This document shows positions 39,542-64,000 of a DNA stretch of 64,000 nt, in pieces. Each line of letters opens with the position of its first letter. Positions within the stretch are counted from its first letter, which is position 1. This DNA is from an uncultured virus (IMG/VR IMGVR_UViG_3300008108_000202). Taxonomy: Duplodnaviria > Heunggongvirae > Uroviricota > Caudoviricetes. The notes beneath the pieces were generated by a model. That model saw nothing but the letters and a program-made list of their open reading frames with translations. It was not told the DNA's origin and did not search any database. Location of the stretch: the IMG/VR virus record IMGVR_UViG_3300008108_000202, one strand, 5' to 3'. A program made the translations under genes and the position numbers.

Positions 39542-39856
39542 TTAATGATATAATTTATATAATTGTTTAATTTTACCCTCAAGTACGTTGGAAACTTTTT
39601 TTACAAATTCTATCTCTTCTTGTTCTGGTAAATCTTCCCATCCCAATTCATATTCATTCCACATAATTGCCTCCACGGCTCTTAAAGTTAATTCATATTT
39701 AAATTGTTCATAACTTTCTGTTTCACCATATACTTGTTCGGCGTTTACTGGAAGTAACCTACTAACCTGATCAATATCAATTCTTCTACGAAAGAATTTT
39801 GATTCATTCAATAGTTCTTCTTTTAATATTCTTCTTATGTTCTCTTGTAGGTTCAT
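39542..39856 (-). CDS. MNLQE leader + RR family protein
   Basis: SKFFRRR. Confidence 0.8.
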   Translation of the reverse strand: MNLQENIRRILKEELLNESKFFRRRIDIDQVSRLLPVNAEQVYGETESYEQFKYELTLRAVEAIMWNEYELGWEDLPEQEEIEFVKKVSNVLEGKIKQLYKLYH

Positions 39857-57769: not shown

Positions 57770-58006
57770 TTAGGAAATAATTTTAATCTCACTTTCGGTT
57801 TCAATAACAACTCTTGCACCACAATTTAATAATGGTTTTTGATCACCGCTACCACAATAGATTATTTTGCTAGGTCCAAGAATTTCAACCTCATTACAAT
57901 AGGTATTCTTTTTTCCTTCCTTAATTGTAATAACAGGAAGATCTGTATCCTTTGTCTTGTTGGATCTTATATGATGTTGATTAACGTGAATTCGTTTCTT
58001 TGCCAT
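57770..58006 (-). CDS. Hypothetical phage protein
   Basis: RIHVNQH.IR.N...CGARV. Confidence 0.75.
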   Translation of the reverse strand: MAKKRIHVNQHHIRSNKTKDTDLPVITIKEGKKNTYCNEVEILGPSKIIYCGSGDQKPLLNCGARVVIETESEIKIIS

Positions 58007-58245
58007 TACGTTTTTCTTATAACCATTTTAAATCCATTCATATCATTGAATAGATCATAAGTATTATAACGATTGTCATTTATAAAACCATAACCTTTAA
58101 ATTTGAAAATGATACAATCAGTATTATTATACCAACCATGAATGGCATTTGTTGCATAATCAATTGAGAAACTTCTAAGTTTTCCTTGATCAAATAATTC
58201 TTTCATTCCATCTTCAAATTCTTCCTTTGATATTTCAATGATCAT
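58006..58245 (-). CDS. Hypothetical protein
   Basis: 79-aa ORF. Confidence 0.7.
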   Translation of the reverse strand: MIIEISKEEFEDGMKELFDQGKLRSFSIDYATNAIHGWYNNTDCIIFKFKGYGFINDNRYNTYDLFNDMNGFKMVIRKT

Positions 58246-58424
58246 ATATAATAATTATCTTTCTTGTCAATTAACCATTCGGCAACTTCCATTTCTTTTG
58301 CCAATTTTTCTGTACCAAAAACTCTAATGAATTCCATTTTTAATTTCACGGGTATTTTGATCATCTTTATATTACCATCTTTTGCTTCAACCCAAATGTT
58401 TAAATTTTTCTTGCTAAATTTCAT
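58242..58424 (-). CDS. Hypothetical protein
   Basis: 60-aa ORF. Confidence 0.6.
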   Translation of the reverse strand: MKFSKKNLNIWVEAKDGNIKMIKIPVKLKMEFIRVFGTEKLAKEMEVAEWLIDKKDNYYI

Positions 58425-58436
58425 AATTTGTTTTTT

Positions 58437-58757
58437 TTAATAACCATTTAAAGAAATGACAACACCTCCCATTAATACAACACAACCTGAAATAATTGCA
58501 GCAGATCTACCTCCTTGTTGGAAGAATGGTTTCTTTTCCGTAGTGGATCCGCCTACATAAAATGGTGTAGTCAATGCCCCTGCTACAATAAAACTTGCTC
58601 CACCTAACACCATAACCGGGCCTACTCGAACATCTCTACTATTATCCAAAATATTAGATTTGTTTAAGTGAAGGTTAATGGTTTGTTTTGGTGGCGCAAC
58701 TTGTGAGAATGCACTTGTGGAAAGTGCTAGTGCTAAAGATAAAACTAATTTTTTCAT
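58437..58757 (-). CDS. Signal-peptide membrane protein
   Basis: MKKLVLSLALALSTSAFSQ; two Gly-rich hydrophobic helices. Confidence 0.72.
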   Translation of the reverse strand: MKKLVLSLALALSTSAFSQVAPPKQTINLHLNKSNILDNSRDVRVGPVMVLGGASFIVAGALTTPFYVGGSTTEKKPFFQQGGRSAAIISGCVVLMGGVVISLNGY

Positions 58758-58866
58758 ATAACTTATGTTTTTAATTTTTAAAAAAACAGGCTTTGCCTAC
58801 CTGTGGTGAGTTCCAAACTTACATCGGATACAAATCCTCAAAGAGGGAAACAAGGGATCCTGTATG

Positions 58867-59553
58867 TTAATTTGATAAAGGTGCTTTAATTGTTGGGTGT
58901 GATTGGTAATCTATTAGTTTTATTAAACTATGGTCTAATTCATCAAATGGAACAGTAAACCCATCTGTTCTTCTCATATCACCACATATCATTAGTTTTG
59001 GTAAGGGATATGGTTCTCTTGTTCTTCCAACCACTATTTGTTTTTTAATACCTTCATTCATAGGACCATTTGGGTACAGTGTTGGGGATTCTTCAAATAT
59101 AGGTTGTCCAATCTGTTCCTTGGCTTGTTCAATGTGATTCAAGTATAAATGCGTATCACCTAAATTACCAATCAATTCATCAGGAACCATATTAACTTGT
59201 TTTGCAATGATTTCAAGTAGTAAACCATAAGATGCTATATTGAATGGTAAACCTAAGAATGTATCTACTGAACGTTGATTCCACATTAAAGAGATTGCTC
59301 TTTTTGGGATGTTATACCAACTAAAATTATCTTTTGGCAATTCATATTCATCCCATTCACCAGGATACGTTTTCTTAAAGTATTCAACTCTTTCATCAAA
59401 ACTCAACTCTCTTGTATAAACTTGAAATCCATAGTGACAAGGTGGAAGAACCATTTTTCCTTCTGTGATATGTTTTCTTCCGTATCTATTATTAAAATCT
59501 TTATCTGTTTTTAGTTTTTCTAAAAACTCTTCTTTTGTTAATTTTTTATCCAT
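58867..59553 (-). CDS. thyA: Thymidylate synthase, C-terminal half
   Basis: LPPCH catalytic motif, QRSVD, LGLPFNIASY, GDTHLY.NH. Confidence 0.9.
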   Translation of the reverse strand: MDKKLTKEEFLEKLKTDKDFNNRYGRKHITEGKMVLPPCHYGFQVYTRELSFDERVEYFKKTYPGEWDEYELPKDNFSWYNIPKRAISLMWNQRSVDTFLGLPFNIASYGLLLEIIAKQVNMVPDELIGNLGDTHLYLNHIEQAKEQIGQPIFEESPTLYPNGPMNEGIKKQIVVGRTREPYPLPKLMICGDMRRTDGFTVPFDELDHSLIKLIDYQSHPTIKAPLSN

Positions 59554-59562
59554 AACTTACTT

Positions 59563-59982
59563 TTATTTTACTATAATATCATTCAAATGAATTGAACGAC
59601 CATCACACTCCGTTTTTACATATACGTAAGAAAATATGTTACGTTCAACAGGTGCGGAACTTAGGTACCAGTTACCGATTACAAAATTTCTTTTACCGTC
59701 ACCAAATGACATATTTTGTTGTATTGTAATTTTATTACCAATTCTATATTCCTGTTCAGTTACAGTTGATTTAAAATAAATCTCATTACTATCATCTAAC
59801 AATAGTTCATAGGATTCTCTACCATTACCAGTAATTAGTTCCCAGTCACTACTACCTATCACCATTAATTTTGGTAATTTATTTTCTTCTGAGGGGCATT
59901 CGTCATTTAAGAAATGAAAGTAATCACCTTTTTTAATTACTAAATCCTCTGTTTTTTTGTGTTTGTAGATAATTTTACTCAT
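59563..59982 (-). CDS. Hypothetical protein inserted between thyA halves
   Basis: 139-aa ORF, no recognisable nuclease motif. Confidence 0.7.
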   Translation of the reverse strand: MSKIIYKHKKTEDLVIKKGDYFHFLNDECPSEENKLPKLMVIGSSDWELITGNGRESYELLLDDSNEIYFKSTVTEQEYRIGNKITIQQNMSFGDGKRNFVIGNWYLSSAPVERNIFSYVYVKTECDGRSIHLNDIIVK

Positions 59983-60009
59983 AATTCCAATTTTTAAAAT
60001 TTTTGTTTT

Positions 60010-60714
60010 CTACTTAAAATTCTTTAAATAATCTTGATAAAGTTCATCATCAGTTCTATAATCAGTAACAGGTAAATCTGCTACATTCCACGCATTAACC
60101 ATCAAACGTCTTGAGTCTGGGTTTGTTTTAAGGTCGTGGATTAGGTTTGATATTTGGTCTATTGATTCAATATTCCATTTTAGCATCGGTCTTTCTGGGT
60201 GAGATGGGTCTACTATATCGCTGGTCTCCCATTTAATATTTAACCAATCTCGCCATTGCTTACCATATATTCTACCTAACTCACCCCACTTGTTAGCAAA
60301 CTCATTATCTGTTTTTATTTTGTTGATGAATTCTTCTTGTGTGTAAAGAGAATATTCTTCGTTAGTAAAAAACCCATCAAAAGATTCTTCTAATTTTAAC
60401 CATTTTCTACTAAAAGTACCTTCATCAGCATTTTTACAATAGTTCTTATAAGCATCACCATCCCAGATATGACAATTGTTATCAACTAAGTATTTGATAT
60501 TTGTATCACCACGTAAGAACCATAACAATTCTGTTACAATTCCTTTCCAATACATTTTCTTTGTTGTGAGTAAAGGAAATCCTTCTGACATCTTATGACG
60601 GATCTGCTTTCCGAATATGGATAGGGTTCCTGTACCAGTGCGATCATCCTTACGAACACCATTGTCTAGGATGTCTTGTAGGAGTGCTTGGTATTTTTTA
60701 TCTAGTGTGTTCAT
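60010..60714 (-). CDS. thyA: Thymidylate synthase, N-terminal half
   Basis: DRTGTGT, FPLLTTKK, ELLWFLRG, YGKQWR, NPDSRR..NAWN. Confidence 0.9.
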   Translation of the reverse strand: MNTLDKKYQALLQDILDNGVRKDDRTGTGTLSIFGKQIRHKMSEGFPLLTTKKMYWKGIVTELLWFLRGDTNIKYLVDNNCHIWDGDAYKNYCKNADEGTFSRKWLKLEESFDGFFTNEEYSLYTQEEFINKIKTDNEFANKWGELGRIYGKQWRDWLNIKWETSDIVDPSHPERPMLKWNIESIDQISNLIHDLKTNPDSRRLMVNAWNVADLPVTDYRTDDELYQDYLKNFK

Positions 60715-60937
60715 TCAATATTCCTTTTAATCGTTTAATTTCCTCAATTACATCATCACCCAATTCAATCTTGGACATCATTGATAAGTCCACAACTTGT
60801 GAGTACAACAGATCAATTAGTTCCTGTTGTGTTTTGATTATTTCTTGTTCATTCATACCATTATCCATAGGTTTCATACATTCTCCTGTACAACTATCAC
60901 CGCAGTTGTACATACATCCATTTGTTCCTTTATTCAT
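60698..60937 (-). CDS. Hypothetical protein with Cys-rich N-terminus
   Basis: CMYNCGDSCTGEC. Confidence 0.65.
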   Translation of the reverse strand: MNKGTNGCMYNCGDSCTGECMKPMDNGMNEQEIIKTQQELIDLLYSQVVDLSMMSKIELGDDVIEEIKRLKGILNEHTR

Positions 60938-61229
60938 AACTTTCTATTTTTTTATTGTCTCTGTAAAATTCCTTAATAAGATTACACATTTCAGTTTGTT
61001 CTGTGATGTTTACTCTAGTCGGATTTCTATTTATTGATTCCAACCTCAATTGATAAACCTCATCCTCATTCAAATCACTCAATAAGTAGTAATCGGCCAA
61101 ACCAAAGTACAACGATATATCATATTCGTTTATATCAAAATGTATGTCATCAACATCAAATGTGAAATACTCATTAACTTTTGGTTTATTATTCCAAAAT
61201 ACTTCATTAACCTTAAATAACCAAATCAT
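60930..61229 (-). CDS. Hypothetical protein ending IESYE
   Basis: 99-aa ORF. Confidence 0.65.
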   Translation of the reverse strand: MIWLFKVNEVFWNNKPKVNEYFTFDVDDIHFDINEYDISLYFGLADYYLLSDLNEDEVYQLRLESINRNPTRVNITEQTEMCNLIKEFYRDNKKIESYE

Positions 61230-61243
61230 AATATTCTATTGTT

Positions 61244-61420
61244 TTAAAAATTTTTAATTAATTCTATTAAAGCCACTAATAATCCCCAAATTCCTACAAT
61301 CGAAACACCAATCAATATTATTACTAATATCTTTGGATTTATATACAATAATGTACCTACTGCTATTAAAATTAAGGTGGCAATTACCTTAGAATTTTTT
61401 ATTAAATCATTAATTTTCAT
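61244..61420 (-). CDS. Small two-TM membrane protein
   Basis: 58 aa, MKINDLIKNSKVIATLILIAVG... Confidence 0.55.
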   Translation of the reverse strand: MKINDLIKNSKVIATLILIAVGTLLYINPKILVIILIGVSIVGIWGLLVALIELIKNF

Positions 61421-61426
61421 AACTTT

Positions 61427-61627
61427 CTATTTTTTAAAGTAATTTATTCTGGATTTTGGAAGTGGGTGTTCATTACCTTTACTATCCCTTAGAAGATATA
61501 ATCCTCCTTTTGTTTTTTTAACAATAGTGAACACTTCATCAGAAGGATAACTTCTCCAAGGTTGAGACATTCTAAGATCCCGACCAAAATCTATTGTGGT
61601 TTCTTTTCCGATATATTCATCATTCAT
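61427..61627 (-). CDS. Hypothetical protein
   Basis: 66-aa ORF. Confidence 0.65.
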   Translation of the reverse strand: MNDEYIGKETTIDFGRDLRMSQPWRSYPSDEVFTIVKKTKGGLYLLRDSKGNEHPLPKSRINYFKK

Positions 61628-61633
61628 AACTTT

Positions 61634-61894
61634 CTATTGTTTTGGTGTTATTGTTATTGGATTATTTTTCCAAAATTCTTTACCCTCTATACTATTATTA
61701 AAGAACATAAAAAATTCTCCATACTTACTTTTTATTTTTTCCATTTTTTCAATGTTAATTTCATCACTATCTCTAAAACTTACAGAAATATTATTAAATG
61801 GATGTAACACCCCATCAAAATCTTTATATGTGTATCCTAATAGAGCAACTGGTAGTTTGCACTCACCTTTTATTTGTTGGTAAATTTTATTCAT
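61634..61894 (-). CDS. Hypothetical protein
   Basis: 86-aa ORF. Confidence 0.65.
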   Translation of the reverse strand: MNKIYQQIKGECKLPVALLGYTYKDFDGVLHPFNNISVSFRDSDEINIEKMEKIKSKYGEFFMFFNNSIEGKEFWKNNPITITPKQ

Positions 61895-62222
61895 AACTTT
61901 CTATAGTTTCGTTTTGATATTTTGTTGTGATTAGTTTGGTTGGTGCTTCATCTTCAACAACCTCCCTTATGTGGTCGTGTTCTAAATTACCAACCAATAA
62001 ATCATATCCTTTATTATCTTGTAACCATTTTGCTCTTTCTTCTAAACTCAACTCTCGTTCTTGAATTTTTAGTCCCCACTTTTCAGAGAACTCAGGATCC
62101 GTTTTACATTTGTTGATGAATTCTTCTTTAGTCCAAGCAGTATCTTTATACAGAATATGATTTTTTTCTCTATAACTCTCATACGCCTCATCAATAATCT
62201 GATTGTATCTTTCTTTACTCAT
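61887..62222 (-). CDS. ThyA-insertion-like family protein
   Basis: KEEFINKCKTDPEFSEKWGL..RELSLEER..PTKLIT. Confidence 0.8.
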   Translation of the reverse strand: MSKERYNQIIDEAYESYREKNHILYKDTAWTKEEFINKCKTDPEFSEKWGLKIQERELSLEERAKWLQDNKGYDLLVGNLEHDHIREVVEDEAPTKLITTKYQNETIESYE

Positions 62223-62403
62223 AACTTTCTATTTTATATCTTATATCTGTTCTATATTCATGTCTATCATAATAAGGCCAAATCATCTGACCTTCTTCAG
62301 TTTCTTTAAACATTATTTCTATTTGAAAAGAATCTAACTGATACATATCTTCAGTAAACCATTGATATCCATTGGAAAAATATCTTATTTGTTTCTTACT
62401 CAT
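62215..62403 (-). CDS. Hypothetical protein ending IESYE
   Basis: 62-aa ORF. Confidence 0.65.
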   Translation of the reverse strand: MSKKQIRYFSNGYQWFTEDMYQLDSFQIEIMFKETEEGQMIWPYYDRHEYRTDIRYKIESYE

Positions 62404-62809
62404 AACTTTCTATTGTTTCGTTGTTATATGTTAGTGTGATTAGTTTGGTTGGTATGTTATTTCTATCCCAAGATTCAACCGTCATGGGTGATACAAACTC
62501 AGAATCATACTTAGCCAATTTTCTTCTTTCTTCCAAACTCAACTCTCGTTCCTCAATCTTTAGTCCCCACTTTTCAGAGAACTCTGGATTGATTTTACAA
62601 ATATTAACGAACTCTTCTTTTGACATCTTTTTACCTGTACCAGGAATACAATCTTTCTCAAAATTCTTATACACCTCATCAATGATCTGATTGTATCTTT
62701 CTTTTGATGTGATGTATTTATTAACAATTCTCTCAATCCCGATTGAGGTGTACCCAAGTTTTTTGTCTTGATTAACCCAAGTCATAAAGTCCAATAATTC
62801 TTTATTCAT
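62396..62809 (-). CDS. ThyA-insertion-like family protein
   Basis: Paralog of 61887..62222. Confidence 0.8.
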   Translation of the reverse strand: MNKELLDFMTWVNQDKKLGYTSIGIERIVNKYITSKERYNQIIDEVYKNFEKDCIPGTGKKMSKEEFVNICKINPEFSEKWGLKIEERELSLEERRKLAKYDSEFVSPMTVESWDRNNIPTKLITLTYNNETIESYE

Positions 62810-63191
62810 AACTTTCCAGTGTTTCTTTGTTGTATGTTAGTACTGTTAGTTTGGTTGGGATGTTTTGTTGGTCTAACTCAAAATCTTTCCAATCAGATTT
62901 CATAAAAGGGTTATTACCATTTAAATGAATTTTAAACCACTCATTTCTTTCTTGGGTACTCAACTCTCTTTCCTCAATCTTTAATCCCCACCTTTCAGAG
63001 AACTCAAAACCTGACTTACATTTGTTGATGAACTCTTCTTGTGATAATAATCTAGGGGTTGCATGGTAAATAGGTCCTTCTACAACTATAATGTCTTTAT
63101 TGATTTCTAAATTAAGATTTAATCCTTTGGTTTTATCAATAAAATTCTTATAAACCTCATCAATAATCTGGTTGTATTTTTCGTTATTCAT
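62802..63191 (-). CDS. ThyA-insertion-like family protein
   Basis: Paralog of 61887..62222. Confidence 0.8.
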   Translation of the reverse strand: MNNEKYNQIIDEVYKNFIDKTKGLNLNLEINKDIIVVEGPIYHATPRLLSQEEFINKCKSGFEFSERWGLKIEERELSTQERNEWFKIHLNGNNPFMKSDWKDFELDQQNIPTKLTVLTYNKETLESYE

Positions 63192-63192
63192 A

Positions 63193-63555
63193 TTACCATC
63201 TATTTTGTTTCCATTTATCATCACCCTGATCTTCCAACTTTCTAACGATACTTAAGGCTTCTTGTGCAGTTGGTGTTTTAACATCAAAATCATAAGCAAT
63301 TCTACCGACAGAATAAACTAAATACTTGAGGTATTTTCTTTCTAATTCAAGTGTATGTTCAGAATCATAAGGTATTTTCATTGCAGAATTGTCATCAGAA
63401 AAATATAAAGACATATAAAAAGGGTTGACAATATCTAATAATTCCGTAAACCATTCTTTTGATACCCTTTCAAATGTTTTTCTACTGGCTGATGTAATCC
63501 AGGTATTGGTACTACTCCATTCCTCTTTTGTTAATGTTATTGATATTTTATTCAT
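63193..63555 (-). CDS. Hypothetical protein
   Basis: 120-aa ORF. Confidence 0.7.
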   Translation of the reverse strand: MNKISITLTKEEWSSTNTWITSASRKTFERVSKEWFTELLDIVNPFYMSLYFSDDNSAMKIPYDSEHTLELERKYLKYLVYSVGRIAYDFDVKTPTAQEALSIVRKLEDQGDDKWKQNRW

Positions 63556-63907
63556 ATGTCTCTATTGTTTCGTTGTTGTATGTTAGTGTGATTAGTTTGG
63601 TTGGACCAGGTAAGCTTTGTAATATAGTCATTAAATTAGATTCAGACAACTTATCTATATCTATTATCTTGGATTGATGTTTGGGATTGTAGTTTTGTTT
63701 TTCTAACCAATTATTATAAGCATGTGCTTGTTCCTTTAAGGATAACTCTCGTTCCTCAATTTTCAATTCCCACTTTTCAGAGAACTCAGGATCTGTTTTA
63801 CATTTGTTGATGAATTCTTCTTTAAGTAGAAAAGTAAGGTACATCACATGCTTATTTTCTTGATGGTACTTTTCATACACCTCATCAATAATCTGTTCTT
63901 TATTCAT
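63548..63907 (-). CDS. ThyA-insertion-like family protein
   Basis: Paralog of 61887..62222. Confidence 0.8.
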   Translation of the reverse strand: MNKEQIIDEVYEKYHQENKHVMYLTFLLKEEFINKCKTDPEFSEKWELKIEERELSLKEQAHAYNNWLEKQNYNPKHQSKIIDIDKLSESNLMTILQSLPGPTKLITLTYNNETIETYE

Positions 63908-64000
63908 AACTTTTGTTTAATTTTTTCATATGATTTTTCTAAAGTGGAAAGTAGTTGTTCAACGGCATTTTCTCCTTCTCCAATAGCAATTTCTTCGTTA

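Follow-up and report, generated by a model that had tools for sequence, protein, structure and literature searches.

What are the four small, related open reading frames (ORFs) that precede the thymidylate synthase (TS) gene thyA in the uncultured virus IMGVR_UViG_3300008108_000202 (Caudoviricetes), and how are they related to the enzyme? They lie near the end of the stretch of DNA analyzed here, 64,000 nucleotides in all (hereafter, the window), where the G+C content ranges from 26 to 40%, being about 30% around this locus, and where the genes of the last 6 kb are on the minus strand. The four ORFs, which we call mini-genes, were found at 61887..62222 (member 1, 111 amino acids, aa), 62396..62809 (member 2, 137 aa, with an additional N-terminal stretch), 62802..63224 (member 3, 140 aa) and 63548..63907 (member 4, 119 aa). 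As a preliminary description of this DNA had indicated, all four are on the minus strand, in the orientation of thyA and just upstream of it, the array being 1.17 kb away from the gene. A hidden Markov model (HMM) of the family recovers them with independent E-values (i-E) of 1.5e-46, 7.6e-51, 4.7e-57 and 2.4e-38, respectively. They are not local oddities, since they belong to a large family found only in phages, in which conserved pieces of ThyA alternate with two hypervariable segments.

Homology to ThyA and loss of the catalytic core

Members 2 to 4 show 48-59% identity with member 1. Three blocks are common to the four proteins (..YNQIIDE(A/V)Y.., ..EEFINKCKTDPEFSEKWGLKIEERELSLEER.. and ..PTKLITLTYNNETIESYE), while the two segments between them, V1 and V2, cannot be aligned among the paralogs, in agreement with the variable sequence noticed earlier. 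The same composition, block 1, V1, block 2, V2 and block 3, is found in each family member. The motif pairs that the preliminary description quoted from the paralogs and ThyA are present, with the order of ThyA kept.

In the window, thyA itself is broken into two ORFs, an N-half and a C-half, described below. By BLASTP, EEFINKCKTDPEFSEKWG is identical to residues 124-144 of the N-half at 15 of 21 positions, and the remainder of each paralog is collinear with residues 3-99 of the C-half, with a 17-residue alignment gap falling on the catalytic-Cys loop (HITEGKMVLPPCHYGFQ) of the latter. When all ORFs of 78 sources were searched with the family HMM, thyN (i-E 3.4e-8) and thyC (i-E 1.3e-3) were also recovered. 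Profile-profile alignment (hhalign) of the family with unsplit ThyA of the insert type gave a Prob of 98.6 and an E-value of 1.1e-15 over 98 columns, with one large gap spanning everything from ..KWG to FQ.Y, which is the core. Against the alignment of the ThyA C-half, the values were 97.8 and 1.3e-12. The similarity proposed in the preliminary description is therefore significant.

Both thyA halves match PF00303, whereas none of the four paralogs does at E ≤ 0.1. PPCH is absent from all four, and the catalytic cysteine loop (PCH) and the nucleotide-binding core lie in the alignment gap. The earlier claim that ThyA segments had been joined without the catalytic core is thus confirmed, the Cys loop being removed by the gap in both the BLASTP and the hhalign alignments. 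The same segments had also been called phage-specific inserts, and this is correct for only one of them. The hairpin RELS..ER-V2-NIP.RA is specific to the clade, but EEFINK...KWG belongs to the canonical small domain, since it aligns to the small domain of long-type ThyA (Enterococcus, chain 3uwl).

The alignments indicate that the mini-genes are homologous to segments of ThyA by common descent. The family retains two pieces of ThyA, namely the helices of the small domain that surround V1, and a pair of central beta-strands together with the hairpin insert that is specific to the clade and contains V2. In long-type ThyA (PF00303; PDB 3uwl, 4dq1), the homologous blocks are found in the same order, namely the helix before GELG, the FQ.Y strand and the ..L.WNQRS.D strand. 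On the other hand, the family proteins have neither the catalytic Cys loop nor the dUMP- or folate-binding core nor a Pfam match, they are 100-180 aa long against the 370-440 aa of ThyA, and where ThyA has its C-terminal half, they have only a short terminal hairpin. The N-terminus of the family (MNKERYNQII) also resembles that of ThyA (MN.LDK.YQ.LL), a likeness seen by eye only and located outside the hhalign alignment.

Distribution of the family and linkage to thyA

In a profile search of a clustered protein collection, 7906 of the 8000 scored candidates matched at E ≤ 0.01. Among the 120 matches listed, the source gave either no name or only 'hypothetical protein', and a Pfam domain was found in none. 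HMMER against 1.84 billion representatives (50% identity clusters) recovered 624, 450 and 68 clusters at E ≤ 1e-3, 1e-10 and 1e-30, respectively, with lengths from 99 to 221 aa among the 150 matches listed. No relatives were found among bacteria and archaea (genomes of 185,579 species), among named phages (50,697 records, tblastn), in the ESM Atlas or in the nearest genome record (G001, a 19%-complete fragment). The paralogs have no match in Pfam and PHROG, a profile search of PDB sequences gave chance-level matches only (E 0.21 or worse), and no description of a ThyA-derived mini-gene family was found in the literature. With 450 clusters at E ≤ 1e-10, the family is large. It suggests how a hypervariable scaffold can develop out of a housekeeping enzyme.

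From IMG/VR we obtained 76 loci, on contigs of up to 304 kb. Their family ORFs number 147, and 126 of these cover the full model, while some copies are broken (L047, L020). The arrays are upstream of thyA and on the same strand, at a median distance of about 600 bp. An insert-type thyA lies directly downstream and on the same strand in 37 of the 76 loci, which bears out the expected co-occurrence with insert-bearing thyA. A short, divergent and insert-less TS-like gene takes this place in 10 loci, a TS gene is found elsewhere within the locus in 6, no TS gene exists within at least 3 kb downstream in 16, and a further 7 end too soon to tell. In the 304-kb genome, which is rated 100% complete, the only TS-family gene is of the short insert-less type, with the one family copy of this genome immediately upstream, and in another contig the family copy is 30 kb away from thyA.

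The short TS-family gene was observed in L007 (11995-12825) and in 12 further loci (L009, L013, L024, L030, L031, L035, L039, L043, L046, L047, L056 and L065). It encodes 277-290 aa without inserts, with the motifs FPCAYE.., QRSNDY.. and NLHIYDRHF, and fills the thyA slot directly 3' of the arrays in 10 of its 13 loci. It may correspond to a pyrimidine hydroxymethylase-type enzyme.

Mosaic cassettes and their exchange with thyA

Both variable segments could be parsed in 78 of 121 proteins, where 36 V1 types and 15 V2 types occur in 59 combinations and 11 pairs of V1 types have at least 2 V2 types in common. The cassettes of the window paralogs recur with other partners in P0007, P0018, P0037 and P0105. 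ThyA of these phages varies at the same two places. As references we used 165 V1 and 158 V2 cassettes of the family. Of the ThyA cassettes compared with them, 4 of 20 for V1 and 8 of 23 for V2 scored above the best of 200 and 230 shuffles, respectively, and 5 of the V2 matches are nearly identical. The V1 of the window ThyA is identical to that of family member P0122 at 33 of 34 positions.

In L050 and L052, the family gene and the thyA of the same contig are 100% identical over 117 nt. This tract is bounded exactly by RELS.. and ..NIPT, and the similarity collapses beyond these borders. No recent conversion tract was found in the window itself. In four public metagenome runs we found contig joints across V1, across V2 and across the insert of the 139-aa ORF that splits thyA (an unsplit allele), together with chimeras of paralogs 1/2 and 2/3, although these joints may come from related phages. 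Taken together, the sequences indicate that V1 and V2 types are reshuffled among the family members and with thyA by recombination at the conserved blocks, forming one recombining system. Cassette traffic between an enzyme gene and stripped-down copies of it is hereby documented in viruses. We consider this descriptive part, comprising the homology, the family and the cassette exchange, to be very probably correct.

Two further rearrangements were observed. A 167-aa family member in L004 (9989-10489) contains block 2 twice (EEFINKCKTED.. and then ..TPDTEFSQRWGLKIEE), which indicates unequal recombination within the gene. Among the 16 ThyAs of alignment A5, 6 have a third RELS..ER-variable-..TRT module before REP.PLP (L058, L071, L019, L025, L042 and, degenerate, the window at 58867-59553), so the insert module has been copied to a second site in ThyA.

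Selection and predicted fold

The pN/pS of block 2 is 0.29 (75 unique sequences). For pairs of the same cassette type, we obtained 0.32 (V1, 22 pairs) and 0.16 (V2, 29 pairs), two values that are biased low because only pairs at least 60% identical were kept. Judging by these ratios, the blocks and cassettes are under purifying selection as protein. In the AlphaFold2 (AF2) model of member 3 (pLDDT 80.9, pTM 0.71), a long helix is followed by a hairpin in V1, a pair of helices, a strand, helices within V2 and a hairpin at the end, and the order of the elements (H-H/E/H..H/E) is the same as in the ThyA model. Foldseek with this model against PDB gave a best E-value of 0.27 and the wide VIA-align search a best Z of 3.7, so that no solved structure matches. 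The fold search of BFVD returned three uncharacterised family members, followed by a weak phage ThyA (E 0.1, prob 0.92). As far as the model can tell, these searches establish neither a new fold nor a ThyA fold.

Could the array be a selfish or neutral by-product? Homing endonucleases that move with thyA flanks would promote segmental duplication, and thyA-derived ORFs without function would pile up. The broken copies in L047 and L020 fit this possibility, as do the tail and leader of split thyA (see below), which look like copies of the V1 flanks at two split sites with different endonucleases. A process of this kind is described for T-even phages, in which SegB brings about the segmental amplification of adjacent genes (PMC13096335). 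However, the 450 clusters with conserved family-specific residues, the pN/pS of 0.16-0.32, the full length of 126 of the 147 copies in DNA of ~30% G+C and the confident predicted fold all argue against functionless copies, and we regard this origin of the array as quite improbable.

Direction of descent

The conserved blocks match elements of ThyA in general, namely the IWDxxA helix, the small-domain helix before GELG.YG.QWR, the FQ.Y strand and the ..L.WNQRS.D strand. An origin from thyA is far more economical for this reason, and the family is most likely the product of internal deletions in thyA rather than a donor to it. The preliminary description had considered the mini-genes as a possible donor domain absorbed by ThyA, which is unlikely for the blocks. 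Megablast against named phages matched the window only over 96 bp, within the thyA of Flavobacterium phage vB_FspM_immuto_2-6A, and the unsplit 423-aa ThyA of phage immuto has both inserts, with no family ORF in the ~2 kb upstream listed. The traffic of cassettes between ThyA and the family is real, and either direction is possible.

Possible function of the mini-proteins

We suggest that internal deletions of thyA would have given rise to the mini-gene family, whose copies would then have multiplied by tandem duplication among the many homing endonucleases of an early-gene region. Translation of the mini-genes would yield a compact alpha/beta scaffold displaying V1 and V2, so that the repertoire of each genome would comprise from 1 to about 5 display proteins that differ in their two loops. 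Through recombination at the blocks, loops would continually be exchanged among the mini-proteins and passed on to ThyA. Their most likely job would be the binding of a variable target in phage-host or phage-phage conflict, and the supply of alternative loops to ThyA by gene conversion would be a by-product or a second job. We rank this display or binding role above a ThyA decoy and a DNA-only archive because most of the loops are unlike those of the resident ThyA and because the family is also maintained where insert-type ThyA is missing. Taken as a whole, description and function together, the explanation seems to us evenly poised between right and wrong. The functional part, in which the mini-proteins are a display or binding repertoire, is a tentative suggestion that leans towards doubt.

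Several points weigh against this explanation, in addition to the bias in the cassette pN/pS. The 76 loci are not independent, since several of them represent one phage from different samples, and the ThyA model used in the structural comparison is poor (pLDDT 62). A perfect conversion tract within a genome is found only in L050 and L052, which are probably one phage. The other common cassettes come from separate contigs and could likewise be explained by mini-genes that arose from thyA repeatedly. Finally, codons that are rare in the window genes (TTC, ATC, AAC, GAG and CGA) are kept in block 2 by 66-93% of the sequences, against a usage of 4-24% in the window, and ThyA has TTC, ATC, AAC and GAG among them. 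This hints at a DNA-level constraint or homogenisation, and a role as recombination substrate would account for it at least as well as a pure protein role. We rejected the rare codons as proof of a DNA-level signal, since translational selection or shared ancestry could give the same pattern.

According to the preliminary description, the mini-proteins could be non-catalytic mimics that titrate a host sensor or partner of the ThyA inserts, or that regulate ThyA. They carry the same kind of module as ThyA, even the very same cassette in L050, their genes are probably co-transcribed with thyA, and anti-defence genes are near in some loci (see below). A decoy, however, would have to show the loops of the resident ThyA. 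Each of the four window paralogs differs from this ThyA in both V1 and V2, and the loops differ in most loci as well. Moreover, the family persists next to the insert-less TS-like enzyme of the complete 304-kb genome, and no ThyA-sensing defence was found in the literature (titles and abstract openings only). We consider such mimicry very unlikely.

The display repertoire that we prefer shares its DNA layout with pilE/pilS of Neisseria and vlsE/vls of Borrelia, which are bacterial gene-conversion cassette systems. In both cases there is an array of partial copies upstream of the full gene and on its strand, with variable segments between conserved blocks, and the conversion tract is bounded by these blocks (117 nt in L050/L052). 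Unlike the bacterial cassettes, the mini-genes have their own ATG starts, appear to be selected as protein (pN/pS 0.16-0.32) and are full length in 126 of 147 cases, and in this sense the donors are not silent. Furthermore, the full gene is a viral metabolic enzyme, the copies also exchange with each other and the family survives without the full gene. A virus-encoded diversity system, with the translated and core-less thyA mini-genes as a cassette library from which recombination at the blocks rewrites two surface loops of the essential ThyA and of the mini-proteins, is a possible but rather doubtful reading of these likenesses. It may be triggered by homing-endonuclease breaks. If true, it would be the phage counterpart of pilin- or Vls-type antigenic variation, with selection exerted by host sensors reading the loops or by endonucleases reading the loop DNA. 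Should host immunity or homing endonucleases indeed recognize the loops, the arrays would be a tractable natural system for recombination-based diversification in phages, and would also address the fast turnover of the surface inserts of phage ThyA.

Split thyA and homing endonucleases

In the window, the two thyA halves have their own stop and start codons, with the 139-aa ORF (59563..59982, minus strand) between them. The N-half (60010..60714, minus strand, 234 aa) matches positions 1-139 of PF00303 (E 1.6e-49) and was aligned to PDB 3uwl, and the C-half (58867..59553, minus strand, 228 aa) matches positions 140-233, including the catalytic Cys (E 7.5e-32). The V1 cassette of ThyA is at 60337..60438 on the minus strand (N-half residues 93-126; metagenome joints 60338>60450 and 60344>60439). 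Its V2 cassette, flanked by RELSFDER and NIPKRA, is at 59311..59388 on the same strand (C-half residues 56-81; joints 59300>59401 and 59304>59389). In the metagenome contigs with the unsplit allele, the joint is 59456>60073, with 4 letters between.

Each half has an extra piece at the break. The N-half ends in a C-terminal tail (60010..60069, minus strand; VTDYRTDDELYQDYLKNFK and stop) that resembles block 1 and is absent from unsplit ThyAs. The same tail is found in L033, and a related one in L066 at a different split site. The C-half starts with an N-terminal leader (59455..59553, minus strand; residues 1-33) that is a third copy of the EEF..K.KTD..F motif. Tail and leader resemble the ThyA helices on both sides of V1. 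They may hold the halves of the split ThyA together, in which case duplicates of its own helices could be a natural means of joining a split enzyme.

In relatives, thyA is cut at V1 (L004, L005, L015-17, L051 and L068, and L045 as far as the contig end), after YG..WR (L066, L067 and L069) or at NAWNVADLP (L033, as in the window). The ORFs within the split gene of these relatives have GIY-YIG, HNH, NUMOD, I-TevI DNA-binding or DUF7487 domains. Homing endonucleases are frequent in the vicinity of the arrays. Endonuclease-type domains were found in 10 of the 117 representative neighbours scanned, and DUF7487 in 2 more. At the two split sites other than V1, the end of the N-piece (DD.LY.DYLK..) and the start of the C-piece (..KEEFL.KLKTDK.FN..) are copies of the flanks of the V1 site. 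L066 has ends of the tail/leader type at the other split site, with a different endonuclease between them. It looks as if the endonuclease cassette had moved together with the V1-site flanks.

These breaks bear on an explanation in which the mini-genes matter mainly as DNA, being endonuclease-free repair templates with thyA flanks. When the endonuclease of a co-infecting relative cuts thyA near V1 or V2, repair from an upstream copy would rewrite the target and keep the endonuclease out, translation being secondary. The splitting of thyA exactly at V1 by GIY-YIG, HNH, NUMOD or DUF7487 ORFs, and at two other sites, is consistent with such an archive. So are the arrays lying upstream on the same strand at a median of about 600 bp, the L050 conversion tract bounded by conserved blocks, the rare codons in blocks common to the family and thyA, and the metagenome alleles with other V1 or V2 and without the split. 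However, an endonuclease insertion at V2 was found in no locus. Silent donors would need neither start codons nor intact frames nor family-specific residues, yet the copies have retained all of these under purifying selection. The complete 304-kb genome keeps its copy without insert-type thyA, and 16 of the 76 loci have no TS gene within at least 3 kb downstream. We regard the archive as unlikely, and the display repertoire is still the explanation that we favor.

Other candidates for the break in the window thyA were discarded. A group I intron, as in the thyA of T4 (td), was rejected, since no Rfam match was found at E ≤ 1 in 58000-64000 and the halves have their own stop and start codons. 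A split intein was also rejected, since the halves match only PF00303, and its two candidate parts, the tail of 19 aa and the leader of 33 aa, fall short of the length required and resemble the helices of ThyA itself. The 139-aa ORF has no known family (Pfam, PHROGs) and its 17 homologs are all unnamed. It occupies the place of a GIY-YIG-type endonuclease in the relative L033, but as a homing endonuclease it was rejected, given the lack of a family match and of likeness to the L033 endonuclease.

A gene split in a similar way is nrdA of Aeromonas phage Aeh1, which is interrupted by mobE. Our comparison with fractured genes concerns the neighbouring thyA and not the mini-genes. In the window and in relatives, thyA is likewise broken in two with an ORF between the pieces (a GIY-YIG or HNH endonuclease in relatives), as in the genes fractured by endonucleases and split inteins that PMC2677866 deals with. 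Unlike fractured genes with a split intein, no intein is present here, and the tail and leader copy the V1 flanks of ThyA itself.

Two observations on relatives concern the same insertions. In L020 (12153-14039), and also in L021, a 629-aa thyA frame has an in-frame insert of ~270 aa after YG.GWR.W, which is the site of the HNH endonuclease in L066. DUF7487 ORFs are found in the V1 split of thyA in L015 (11577-12545) and just upstream of thyA in L028 (11628-12647), one of them also having a TnsA-like endonuclease N-terminal domain. These ORFs are candidates for another type of homing endonuclease.

Gene junctions and neighbourhood

Seven copies of the motif TAGAAAGTTATGA mark gene junctions in 60934..62818 on the minus strand, where the stop of one gene overlaps the next ATG. 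In the window, 8 sites were found against 0.37 expected, the eighth being at 39708. The terminal ..IESYE of the paralogs overlaps the ATG of the next gene, and since TAGAAAGTTATGA also ends unrelated nearby ORFs, part of the C-terminal likeness of the paralogs is due to the gene junction. The motif may be a boundary for whole-gene shuffling.

Two unrelated ORFs, both on the minus strand, lie inside the stretch 61887-63907, for which the preliminary description had listed only the four paralogs, all of them present. The first (62215..62403, 62 aa) has only the ..IESYE/ATG junction in common with the members. It showed no Pfam match at E ≤ 0.1 and no family-HMM match, and its PHROG matches are weak (E 0.015 and 0.086). 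For the second (63193..63555, 120 aa), between members 3 and 4, no family was found (Pfam, PHROGs, family HMM).

A terminator-like hairpin at 58786..58804 (minus strand), just after thyA, is the only one in 58500-64000. Sigma-70-like promoters show no excess (23 found, 30 expected). The mini-genes are probably translated together with thyA. Joint expression is probable because the sole terminator-like site follows thyA and because stop and start codons overlap.

In T4-type phages, modular shuffling by conserved intergenic cassettes is known as PeSL. As in PeSL and SegB systems, the small genes of this plastic early region meet at a short conserved junction (TAGAAAGTTATGA), and endonucleases adjoin tandem copies. 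Unlike PeSL, this junction is a stop/start overlap and not a promoter stem-loop. By analogy, the mini-genes could have been amplified by the action of endonucleases.

Homologs of the Thoeris inhibitors Tad6/Tad3 were observed near the arrays or thyA in L014 (13078-13689), L074 (11534-12079), L055 (12046-12615) and L049 (9452-9994), those of L049 and L055 being directly beside the array or thyA. The region therefore also carries anti-defence genes.

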